Source: a virus
Lineage: Duplodnaviria > Heunggongvirae > Uroviricota > Caudoviricetes
Virus record (IMG/VR): IMGVR_UViG_2579778660_000002
DNA length: 19,645 nucleotides
Reading direction: 5' to 3' (one strand)
Each line of letters starts with the position of its first letter. Position 1 is the stretch's first letter. The notes under the pieces were generated by a model. It did no database searches. It was not told where the DNA came from and worked only from the letters and a program-made list of their open reading frames with translations. The position numbers were made by a program, and so were the translations under genes. This document shows positions 13,907-16,443 of this stretch, piece by piece.

Positions 13907-14197
13907 ATGGAAGTCAACAAAAAGCAGCTGGCTGACATTTTCGGTGCGAGTATCCGTACCATTCAGAACTGGCAGGAACAGGGAATGCCCGTTCTGCGAG
14001 GCGGTGGCAAGGGTAATGAGGTGCTTTATGACTCTGCCGCCGTCATAAAATGGTATGCCGAAAGGGATGCTGAAATTGAGAACGAAAAGCTGCGCCGGGA
14101 GGTTGAAGAACTGCGGCAGGCCAGCGAGGCAGATCTCCAGCCAGGGACTATTGAGTACGAACGGACGCACTTAATTATCGCAACCAGGCGCAAGTAA
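13907..14197 (+). pseudogene. nu1: Terminase small subunit Nu1, truncated after about codon 86
   Basis: MEVNKKQLADIFGASIRTIQNWQEQGMPVLRGGGKGNEVLYDSAAVIKWYAERDAEIENEKLRREVEELRQASEADLQPGTIEYER matches lambda Nu1, then diverges at 14163/14164 and stops after 10 unrelated codons. Confidence 0.9.
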
Positions 14198-14232
14198 TTG
14201 TTGGCGATAATATCGGTCTTGGTGAAGTTGCC

Positions 14233-16443
14233 ATGACCTGCACTGATATCTCTGTTGAGCCATCAGGTTATATTGGATTTGTCAGGATTTACATCTCAGC
14301 GAAAGGTTATCCATCAGTAGCGTCTAGTGCCGGTGATAATCTTATTTCTGGTTATATAGTTAGATCAGAAGTGTCAACAAAAAGATATTCCGGTCTATTT
14401 GTTGGTTCAGATACAAAATCATTGTATTCGTACATTTACAGCCAAAGTTCTGGCCCGCAATGGATACGTCATACCCGCAGAGATGAATTAAGCCGCTTTG
14501 GTCAAAATGAATCAACAACTCGTATGTATGGTCCAACTGGTGATCGTTTCTTTGAAATCCATACTAACGGGAGTTGGGGAGTTTATGATTCTTCTTCTGG
14601 ACAATGGTCTCCGTTAGGTTTAGCCCAGGGCGGTACTGGTGGAAGAACTATCGAGCAAGCACGTGCGAACTTGCGGGTAATGTATGAGCAAAAAGCTGGC
14701 CTTGCTAATACTGACCTAAACACCCTTACCGGTGAATATTCTGGTTTCTATCAACAACCAACGAGCGCTTACGCAACAGAAGAATTAAATTACCCAATCG
14801 GTCTGGCGGGCGCTTTAATAGTGCTCCAAACGAGAGCCAACACTGCTTCTTCCTGCGTTCAGGTGTACTACCCTTATAATAATCCGGGAATTACTTATAG
14901 ACGAATATATGAAGGAGGAAGCGGTACCTGGTCTGAATGGAAGAGAGATGTATCAACAGAAAGGGTTGAAGAGGGAAAAGAAACAACTTACGTATATTCT
15001 ACGTATTCTTCAGGCGCACCACGCTTACAGGTTTCCAAATCTGGTTTGTGGGGTTGTCATAATGGCACTGGCTGGTTGCCATTAGCTGTTGGGCAAGGAG
15101 GTACAGGTGCGACAACAGTAGAAGATGCGCGAAACAACTTAAGTCTTGGCGAAAGTAGCGCAGTTAAATTTAAAAACCTTACTTTAACCGAAGCGCTCGA
15201 CACGACATTAGGACTGCTTACAAAAACAGGACGAGACTGGAACACGCAGCATACTGATAACATTAATAAATTTATACCAATTGCAGGCAGTACAAACGGC
15301 CCGGCAGGTTCTATGGTTCTTGGCGGCATTCATGTTCAATTTAGTAAAAATTATGCTGTGCAGTTCGGAGGCCGCAATTCCGGTTTTTGGGGAAGAACAA
15401 TTGAAAATGGAACGACGCAGGAATGGAAGAAATTACTAACAGTAGACGATCTCAATTCATCTACCGATCTTGCTGTCAGGTCATTAACCACATCTAACCC
15501 GGTAAAATCTGGCGGAGGGCGAATTGATGTCCTTGGAAGCACGTCAGACTATAGCAAAATGGATTGCTTTGTACGTGGGTTTGATAGCACCGGTAATTCT
15601 CTCGCGTGGGCGTTGGGTTCATCAGTCGGCGTAAGTAAGATGCTGTCGCTAAAAAATTTCTTTAGCGGAGCTGAGATACTGTTAAATGGTAATGACGGCG
15701 CGGTTCAACTCAAAACAGGTGCTGTTAACGGGGCTAAAGCGCAGGCGCTCACTATCAACAAGGATGAGGTTAACTCAACTGTTGATTTAACTCTTACAAA
15801 ACAAACAGGGACTGGAAATCGTTTTGTTTTACAGAACTTAGGTAATACAGAACTATCATTTGCCGCAAAAGTATGGGGATCAAGTGATCGACAAAACGTT
15901 TTTGAGGTTGGAACGTCTGCTGCGTATCTGTTTTATGCGCAAAAAACGTCAGCAGGCCAGTTGTTTGATGTAAATGGCGCTATTAATTGCACAACGCTGA
16001 ATCAGTCATCAGACCGCGACCTTAAAGACGATATTCTCGTTATCAGCGACGCGACGAAAGCAATCCGTAAAATGAACGGATACACCTACACGCTCAGGGA
16101 AAACGGGATGCCTTATGCTGGCGTTATTGCACAGGAAGTAATGGAGGCGATACCAGAAGCTGTGGGATCGTTTACTCATTACGGTGAAGAGTTGCAGGGA
16201 CCAACGGTTGACGGCAATGAATTACGTGAAGAAACACGTTATCTGAATGTTGACTACGCCGCCGTGACGGGGTTACTTGTTCAGGTCGCCCGTGAAACAG
16301 ATGGTCGCGTTACCGCGCTGGAAGAGGAAAACATAACGCTACGTAAAAATCTGGCAACAGCAGGCACCCGGATCAGCACTCTGGAAAATCAGGTAAGCGA
16401 ACTGGTTGCACTTGTCCGGCAGTTAACAGGAAGCGAACATTGA
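14233..16443 (+). CDS. Side-tail-fibre-like protein, 5'-truncated, with C-terminal intramolecular-chaperone (peptidase S74-like) domain
   Basis: 736-aa ORF from the first ATG; the frame is open upstream back to the Nu1 junction; repeated LAxGGTG motifs (LGLAQGGTGGRT, LAVGQGGTGATT); C-terminal SDRDLKDDI...NGYTYTL...AGVIAQEVMEAIPEAV...LEEENITLRKNL resembles auto-cleaving chaperone domains of tail fibres/spikes. Confidence 0.65.
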   Translation: MTCTDISVEPSGYIGFVRIYISAKGYPSVASSAGDNLISGYIVRSEVSTKRYSGLFVGSDTKSLYSYIYSQSSGPQWIRHTRRDELSRFGQNESTTRMYGPTGDRFFEIHTNGSWGVYDSSSGQWSPLGLAQGGTGGRTIEQARANLRVMYEQKAGLANTDLNTLTGEYSGFYQQPTSAYATEELNYPIGLAGALIVLQTRANTASSCVQVYYPYNNPGITYRRIYEGGSGTWSEWKRDVSTERVEEGKETTYVYSTYSSGAPRLQVSKSGLWGCHNGTGWLPLAVGQGGTGATTVEDARNNLSLGESSAVKFKNLTLTEALDTTLGLLTKTGRDWNTQHTDNINKFIPIAGSTNGPAGSMVLGGIHVQFSKNYAVQFGGRNSGFWGRTIENGTTQEWKKLLTVDDLNSSTDLAVRSLTTSNPVKSGGGRIDVLGSTSDYSKMDCFVRGFDSTGNSLAWALGSSVGVSKMLSLKNFFSGAEILLNGNDGAVQLKTGAVNGAKAQALTINKDEVNSTVDLTLTKQTGTGNRFVLQNLGNTELSFAAKVWGSSDRQNVFEVGTSAAYLFYAQKTSAGQLFDVNGAINCTTLNQSSDRDLKDDILVISDATKAIRKMNGYTYTLRENGMPYAGVIAQEVMEAIPEAVGSFTHYGEELQGPTVDGNELREETRYLNVDYAAVTGLLVQVARETDGRVTALEEENITLRKNLATAGTRISTLENQVSELVALVRQLTGSEH

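Follow-up and report, generated by a model that had tools for sequence, protein, structure and literature searches.

Introduction

The side tail fibres (Stf) of some lambdoid phages end in an intramolecular chaperone of the Peptidase_S74 family. Described examples are gp20 of mEp460 (YP_007112094.1) and the Stf proteins of Ayreon (ATP61598.1) and PhiR70_1 (XSB43585.1), and E. coli prophage proteins with the same kind of end include WP_015364453.1 and WP_024179294.1. Here we analyse a 19,645-nucleotide stretch of DNA, virus record IMGVR_UViG_2579778660_000002 (called the window below), in which the 3' part of such an stf gene, at 14164–16443, follows directly on the stub of a terminase small-subunit gene, Nu1. 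The S74-ended Stf group shares with the full-length parent of this fragment a lambda-type N-terminal domain, a shaft, a distal module, the S74 chaperone and, after the gene, a remnant of the fibre assembly gene tfa; mEp460 gp20 is 77.8% identical to the part that is retained in the window. Unlike the members of this group, the window copy is without codons 1–342 and stands immediately behind the Nu1 stub. We conclude that it is very probably an inert, recently truncated stf pseudogene in a heavily decayed lambdoid prophage of E. coli between ybhC and ybhB.

The order of genes in phage lambda, J-lom-stf-tfa, is the same as at the parent locus, and the distal part of the lambda fibre is unrelated. 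Lambda has a separate Tfa, as do phages with fibres of the Mu/P2 type, whereas 46 codons of tfa are left here and the folding role would have passed to the S74 domain within the fibre chain. Phage T5 binds O8/O9 polymannose. Its fibre protein pb1 is like the window fibre in having a C-terminal chaperone, of 133 residues as against 144 here. In pb1 this chaperone is cut off at a serine: Ser1264 and Lys1269 cleave the Thr1263–Ser1264 bond, the substitution S1264A prevents cleavage, and the trimeric chaperone is freed once folding is complete (PMC4690869). It is unlike the parent gene in its anchor, which in the parent is lambda-type rather than T5-type. The fibre of slur09, a T5-like phage, is 62.6% identical over residues 85–708 of the open reading frame (ORF) described below.

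Among chaperones of known structure, the best relative is gp37 of phage S16 (6F45 chain A), which has in common with the window fibre the motifs SSDRxxK, GYTY and AGxIAQE and a terminal helix. Upstream of the chaperone, S16 gp37 is unrelated to the window fibre except for the last β-module. S16 is a T4-like myovirus, and the tip of its fibre works with a separate adhesin, gp38. The K1F endosialidase (3GW6), the GA-1 neck appendage (3GUD) and the MYRF ICA domain (7DC3) belong to the same Pfam family, PF13884; the domains that precede their chaperones are tailspike or transcription-factor domains, unlike those of the window fibre, and sequence likeness to 3GW6 and 3GUD is below detection.

The fibre fragment and its full-length parent

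The fragment has the following extent.

14164–16443, plus strand: 3' part of stf, codons 343–1101 of 1101 and the stop codon; the N-terminal tail-attachment domain is gone
14233–16443, plus strand: longest ORF with a start codon, 736 residues; the first start is the ATG at 14233

On translation, the fibre frame is free of stops from 14164 to the TGA at 16441–16443, and its upstream end is closed by an in-frame TGA at 14152. The initial methionine of the 736-residue ORF corresponds to residue 366 of the full-length fibre. The ORF matches PHROG 6578, 'tail fiber protein', with E=2.9e-275, and aligns with the C-terminal end of this 1210-position profile. An earlier note on this DNA, made by a reader of the sequence alone, had proposed an orphan 3' module of a tail fibre at this place; the open frame and the PHROG match bear this out, and all of the elements that the note described (fibre fragment, Nu1 stub, chaperone domain, GGTG motifs and Tfa remnant) are present where it had placed them.

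This kind of protein is already known. RefSeq annotates the 736-residue ORF as a coding sequence in strain ACN002 (WP_024179294.1, which differs at the start codon only) under the name 'pyocin knob domain-containing S74 family peptidase'; related full-length proteins are listed there as 'prophage tail fiber N-terminal domain and S74 family endopeptidase-containing protein'. The NCBIfam hidden Markov models gave no match for the fibre, and the RefSeq name must therefore stem from another resource. We note that the correct label for the window copy is a 5'-truncated stf pseudogene and not a free-standing 'S74 family peptidase' gene, a point of little importance beyond annotation; the finding is correct but ordinary, and holds nothing that would surprise a phage specialist.

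An intact stf gene of 1101 codons with an identical C-terminus is found at the same chromosomal locus in the sister strains TD225-C4 and APEC O78. In this parent protein the Pfam domain phage_tail_N covers residues 1–134 (E=4.5e-72) and Peptidase_S74 begins at residue 958, while a profile search of the window copy gave no match to phage_tail_N. Because this domain is absent here and present in the full-length parent, the window copy is a fragment of the lambda-type Stf family and not a complete member of it. The parent shares 87% identity with lambda Stf over residues 1–284, and beyond residue 284 there is no likeness to lambda. The retained residues, 343–1101, have thus lost the whole of the lambda-like anchor and most of the Ala/Ser-rich shaft. 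In the comparison with lambda Stf and T5 pb1 proposed in the earlier note, likeness to lambda Stf lies only in the N-terminal 284 residues that are missing from the window, and T5 pb1 gave no pairwise match in the PDB.

The same 1101-residue gene, with 98.5% identity at the DNA level, occurs in strain MSI001, where it stands behind a full run of lambda-type genes: the major capsid gene through V, G, T, H, M, L, K, I, J and lom, followed by the fibre and the same tfa remnant. Full-length versions of the fibre thus exist in an apparently intact prophage, that of MSI001, as well as in the sister strains. They end in the same C-terminus; no separate full-length fibre with a different C-terminus appeared, and a chaperone domain was detected, as described below. 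The central part of the fibre is present over at least 80% of its length in about 124 of 5426 genomes, and pieces of it occur within other fibre genes in about 450 more, a scatter typical of a mosaic distribution.

The C-terminal chaperone and the domains upstream of it

The retained part of the fibre contains the following domains and motifs.

16009–16440, plus strand: intramolecular chaperone Peptidase_S74 (Pfam PF13884), the last 144 of the 736 residues
15859–16008, plus strand: β-strand module directly before the predicted cleavage site, with the consensus WG...R..VFEVG....FY.Q
14722–15156, plus strand: pyocin-like knob domain, found by phmmer match to PDB 6CL5, with the second conserved motif at its end
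14605–14673, plus strand: first conserved fibre motif, WSPLGLAQGGTGGRTIEQARANL (the 'GGTG repeat' of the earlier note), found by motif search
15073–15141, plus strand: second conserved fibre motif, WLPLAVGQGGTGATTVEDARNNL, found by motif search

A C-terminal domain resembling the intramolecular chaperones of tail fibres and spikes had been suspected, and the search with profile models agrees. Pfam Peptidase_S74, described as 'chaperone of endosialidase', matches at nucleotides 16009–16164 with E=5.5e-12 and 46.2 bits, against a curated cut-off of 22, and positions 1–57 of the 58 in the profile are covered; the same match is obtained on the full-length parent. The predicted nucleophile is Ser593 (16009–16011) and the predicted base Lys598 (16024–16026), within the motif S593-D-R-D-L-K598; these residues are Ser958 and Lys963 of the full-length fibre. 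At least 90% of the sequences in a 33-homologue alignment keep the Ser, Asp and Lys of this motif, which aligns with SSDRRIK of 6F45. The serine and the lysine are five residues apart, a spacing equal to that of Ser1264 and Lys1269 in T5 pb1 (PMC4690869). By profile, motif and position in the protein, the domain is assigned to the S74 family.

A profile built from the 33-homologue alignment was then compared with chains of known structure. It matched the distal fibre subunit gp37 of phage S16 (6F45_A) over the whole domain with E=1.5e-18, and the autoprocessing domain of human MYRF (7DC3) with E=4.4e-7. The last 207 residues of the ORF were modelled as a monomer with AlphaFold, giving a mean predicted local distance difference test (pLDDT) score of 80.6. 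The model consists of β-strands, a mixed α/β part and a terminal helix of 58 residues, at model residues 146–203 of 207, where the pLDDT is 89–95.

The β-strand module before the predicted cleavage site resembles the C-terminal region of T4 gp34 (4UXE/5NXF, profile E=4e-5). The same two entries are the best Foldseek matches of the AlphaFold model in its β part, with E of about 5e-4, and the strands of the module, at model residues 14–51, have pLDDT values of 87–91. Further upstream, a phmmer search of PDB chains matched residues 164–308 of the ORF to the tail fiber protein 6CL5 with E=1.4e-6, together with a weak match (E=0.47) to the R2-type pyocin structure 6CT8. On this sequence similarity, the domain is taken to resemble the knob of R-type pyocin fibres. 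The two conserved motifs both fit the pattern W-x-P-L-x3-Q-G-G-T-G-x2-T-x-E-x-A-R-x-N-L. The GGTG-containing repeats reported in the earlier note are thus present as two copies, but they are a recurring motif and not repeated domains: comparison of the ORF with itself by BLAST found no internal duplication larger than these two short GGTG motifs.

The tfa remnant is an inherited scar on the simplest reading

Two further features lie downstream of the fibre.

16444–16479, plus strand: spacer that is neither fibre nor tfa, conserved in all of the S74-type stf loci examined
16480–16623, plus strand: tfa remnant (Pfam Caudo_TAP), the last ~46 codons and the stop codon, without a start codon, in the same frame as stf

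The remnant matches positions 87–130 of the 131 in the Caudo_TAP profile (E=8.5e-18). By tblastn, nucleotides 16480–16617 correspond to residues 147–192 of lambda Tfa with 74% identity, and the DNA is 91.6% identical to lambda tfa over 107 nt. The sole in-frame upstream start is a TTG at 16528, and the frame does not amount to a complete Tfa.

A remnant with an identical breakpoint follows the fibre gene in mEp460, Ayreon, PhiR70_1, MSI001, 504239 and strain 190. When six loci were aligned with lambda tfa, the fibre stop codon was identical in all six and was followed by about 55 nt of near-identical sequence that is not tfa, after which the homology to tfa begins at one common point in every locus. 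DNA homology to the window, at 93.9% for mEp460 (15226–16603) and 86.1% for Ayreon, runs on through the stf stop to about 16604 and so includes the remnant. In the complete genomes of mEp460 and Ayreon, tblastn with lambda Tfa finds only the remnant (residues 147–191 of 194), and no Tfa is listed in the annotation of either phage. PhiR70_1, a third viable phage, has an Stf of 830 residues whose S74 end is 77% identical to that of the window and which is followed by the same remnant.

The cassette of S74-ended stf and remnant is also found at other chromosomal sites: in the Qin prophage of 504239 next to pinQ (locus 11993–16318), in the DLP12 prophage of MSI001 next to appY/ompT (locus 12839–16318), and in strain 190 near yodB/zinT (locus 2947–6399). 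It is therefore a cassette that moves between lambdoid prophages. The left breakpoint of the remnant is constant among these loci, and the right half (16540–16623) is mosaic: strain 190, for example, agrees with MSI001 in the middle part and with the window at the 3' end. To judge from these sequences, the mosaic right half indicates later recombination inside the remnant.

The simplest reading is that the remnant would be the inherited scar of one ancestral exchange of modules, and not the product of decay inside a dead prophage, because viable phages, and a prophage that has a full set of tail genes, carry the same remnant with the same breakpoint. The earlier note had described a degraded Tfa gene without a start. 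The lack of a start is confirmed, but the gene has not been degraded locally; it was cleanly truncated, in a form common to viable phages. All lambdoid phages with an S74-ended side fibre carry this same 46-codon scar, and no further Tfa exists in at least two of these phages. The proposal that a fibre of this kind folds without a separate Tfa is supported accordingly by gene content, in that the same fibre end is accompanied in mEp460 and Ayreon by the remnant only, and homology likewise supports the view that the chaperone in the chain would make Tfa dispensable. The scar is natural evidence for an in-chain chaperone replacing Tfa on a lambda-type fibre. In the literature the two arrangements count as alternatives: a paper on the BASEL collection contrasts a fibre that has a C-terminal intramolecular chaperone with the fibre and separate Tfa of a sister phage (PMC11990801), and we found no paper that combines S74, Stf, Tfa and chaperone. 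The observation is relevant to the engineering of chimeric lambda Stf proteins for retargeting of host range, and the scar also marks the mosaic boundaries of the exchange of receptor-binding cassettes; engineered chimeras of lambda and K1F Stf have been used on lambda particles (PMC11338833).

The conservation of the remnant raises the question of whether it has a function of its own, either as a homology arm for swapping tips of the S74 and Tfa types or as a C-terminal extension produced by read-through. Viable phages and several prophage loci have kept the remnant with the same left breakpoint, recombination has occurred within its right part, and its identity to lambda tfa is high. Moreover, one TGA is all that separates it from stf in the same reading frame, and 59 open codons follow this stop (window 16441–16623), a layout that is kept without insertions or deletions in mEp460, Ayreon, MSI001, 504239 and strain 190. 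However, all of the copies come from one event, so that the shared frame may be a single 1-in-3 coincidence and the common breakpoint is uninformative about selection. Mosaic joints at conserved fibre and tfa sequence would be expected without any selection for an arm, only 46 of the 194 residues of Tfa are left and these lack a start codon, and no read-through signal was identified. We therefore consider a function for the remnant improbable, and prefer to regard it as a scar.

The fibre was joined to Nu1 by a deletion

The upstream boundary of the fragment is made up as follows.

13907–14197, plus strand: stub of Nu1/nohD, terminase small subunit; codons 1–85 are native, then come 10 out-of-frame codons from fibre DNA and a TAA
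14162–14163, no strand assigned: deletion junction with a 2-bp microhomology, CG, placed by base-by-base comparison with TD225-C4

The stub of 96 residues matches positions 1–92 of the 164 in the Pfam profile Phage_Nu1 through its residues 1–92 (E=3.6e-54), is identical to nohD of TD225-C4 up to 14163, and ends at the TAA at 14195–14197. It joins the fibre immediately, with no intervening sequence. The earlier note had the fibre fused to the Nu1 stub with no head or tail genes between them; the direct join is correct, at 14162/14163, but it is out of frame, Nu1 being read in frame 2 and the fibre in frame 1.

In BLAST comparisons, window 7184–14163 aligns to 1023–8002 of the TD225-C4 locus, and window 14162–19645 to 12001–17484. 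Over the latter 5.5 kb there is a single mismatch, at 17528, and the fibre stretch is identical. Relative to both TD225-C4 and APEC O78, 3998 bp are missing between Nu1 codon 86 and stf codon 342, comprising the 3' portion of nohD, remnants of terminase A and of J, lom, and nucleotides 1–1024 of stf.

The exact junction occurs in none of the 5426 complete E. coli genomes, nor is it found in the GTDB representative genomes. Such rarity might be taken to mean that the junction is an error of assembly and that the true genome has a full-length fibre. Independent assemblies have, however, yielded at least five contigs that encode the chimeric 96-residue stub with the 736-residue S74 ORF directly behind it; they include an NCBI contig of 339 kb and contigs that Logan assembled from separate runs. 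The junction, moreover, has only 2 bp in common between its two sides, with no repeat able to mislead an assembler. An artefact is thus scarcely credible, and we reject it on the strength of the independent assemblies that encode the chimeric stub. The junction is real and specific to a lineage, and the strain of GCA_000627855.1 is one of its carriers.

Comparable deletions have arisen separately in other strains. ACN002 has a separate lom::stf deletion exactly at the ATG (end point 14234), which leaves the same ORF; another group of strains has a lom::stf deletion at about 14632; and AR_0369 has a Nu1::lom deletion. The right-hand ends therefore vary among strains, being at 14163, at 14234, at about 14632 and inside the S74 domain. 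Four short proteins, P0038, P0105, P0112 and P0113, join Terminase_GpA, terminase endonuclease or Phage_tail_L sequence to the same S74 C-terminal sequence, and appear to be the products of further independent deletions that end inside stf in other E. coli strains. Variation of this kind is expected of random nested deletions beside the retained end of a prophage.

With regard to the lineage, the closest complete genomes are APEC O78-like and are 100% identical to the window over 1300–8800, except for a copy of the insertion sequence IS2 that has no counterpart in the window. This IS2 lies near window position ~3165 (APEC O78 locus 3347–4575) in APEC O78 and many related strains. The strains that have it are without the Nu1::stf deletion, and the window is the reverse. 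Separately, the N-terminal 55 residues of the Nu1 stub (13907–14071) match the PADLOC model mad1 (mads_1) with E=3.7e-12, most likely through a shared helix-turn-helix domain.

Origin and fate of the truncated gene

The prophage in the window is lambdoid and DLP12-like and occupies the lambda attachment site, with ybhC at 1–1284 on one side and the ybhB side opposite. In APEC O78 and TD225-C4 the prophage is already defective: ral abuts a truncated Q, and a fragment of terminase A is joined to one of J; behind this fusion come lom, the 1101-codon stf and a 'tail fiber assembly protein, missing N-terminus' of 44 codons.

From what is known of the family, the N-terminal domain of the parent fibre would anchor the trimer to the tail tip, and the Ala/Ser-rich shaft and the knob domains would bear the distal receptor-binding region. 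The last 144 residues would form a trimeric coiled coil and act as a template on which the β-structure before them folds; Ser958 and Lys963 would then cut the chain and the chaperone would leave, with no need for a separate Tfa. At some point, a cassette comprising the receptor-binding region and the chaperone would have recombined into a lambda-type stf-tfa locus, replacing the tip of the fibre and codons 1–146 of tfa. The tail of tfa has been carried along since that swap, also in viable phages. In the lineage of the window, the prophage had lost its immunity, replication, head and tail genes first, as the sister copy in APEC O78 shows. Illegitimate recombination that joined Nu1 codon 86 to stf codon 342 then removed a further ~4 kb, as the junction shows. 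What remains has no tail anchor, no virion to join and no evident promoter, and is in all likelihood inert DNA, not yet old enough for mutations to have gathered.

Several points weigh against this account. The 736-residue ORF is fully intact, starts with ATG, and its equivalent elsewhere is called a gene by RefSeq. The solved chaperone domains were reached by profile search and fold search only and not by pairwise phmmer, which, among PDB chains, recovered neither T5 pb1 nor the K1F endosialidase. The Foldseek matches of the monomer model to chaperones were weak, both for K1F (3GW6; E=0.039, probability 0.84) and for GA-1 (3GUD; probability 0.93, target-normalised TM-score 0.53), as is expected because the model is one chain of an intertwined trimer. 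Finally, self-cleavage of the fibre would follow from homology, and dispensability of Tfa from homology and gene content.

The first of these points leads to a different explanation, in which the 736-residue ORF is expressed and selection has preserved its product as a receptor-binding protein in its own right, for instance a decoy that shields a surface receptor from incoming phages. The independent deletion in ACN002, which leaves the same ORF with its RefSeq coding sequence, is consistent with this, and the processed C-terminal fragment of T5 pb1, when added externally, inhibits infection by competition (PMC4690869). Against it, promoter-like sites number 8 as against 6.0 ± 2.1 expected, the promoter and terminator scan giving no excess over shuffled sequence; an in-frame TGA stands at 14152, and the Nu1 stub ahead of the fibre is read in a different frame; and the late-gene antiterminator Q is truncated. 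No export signal or surface route was identified, PADLOC gave no match for the fibre ORF, and the deletion end points vary by strain as random deletions would. Nor does the intact ORF say anything about selection, because the fibre stretch is identical to that of the intact gene. We regard this explanation as very unlikely.

A more specific form of it is that the fibre would be translated from the ATG at 14233 and processed by its own chaperone into a soluble trimer without a tail, which would mask the receptors of sister cells and hinder phages that use the same receptor. Purified fragments of T5 pb1 show such competition in vitro (PMC4690869), and a cryptic prophage would, if this were true, gain a defence by receptor masking; its chances appear slimmer still. 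A recently truncated and inert pseudogene remains by far the better description of the fragment.

Other features of the prophage

The truncated Q antiterminator gene lies at 8392–8610 in the window; ral adjoins this remnant, and the immunity and replication region is missing. Beyond it, a porin gene of the OmpC/NmpC type, encoding 360 residues on the minus strand at 8799–9881, lies inside the prophage as in DLP12. No tRNA genes were found in the window, and Rfam gave nothing in or near the fibre region; the sole Rfam match in the window is Lambda_thermo, the thermoregulator of lambda cIII, at 7414–7472 on the minus strand (88.5 bits against a gathering threshold of 50), which overlaps the start of the cIII ORF at 7295–7459.

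Downstream of the tfa remnant, the region 16624–18872 consists of 1.5 kb of AT-rich DNA (GC 0.347, with no ORF of more than 70 codons) and then a gene for an AraC-family regulator at 18120–18872 (GC 0.351). The viable phages PhiR70_1, ev099 and mEp332 have the AT-rich stretch with 99% identity, and in them too it is followed by the AraC gene and an IS2 remnant. The region looks like phage-borne cargo.

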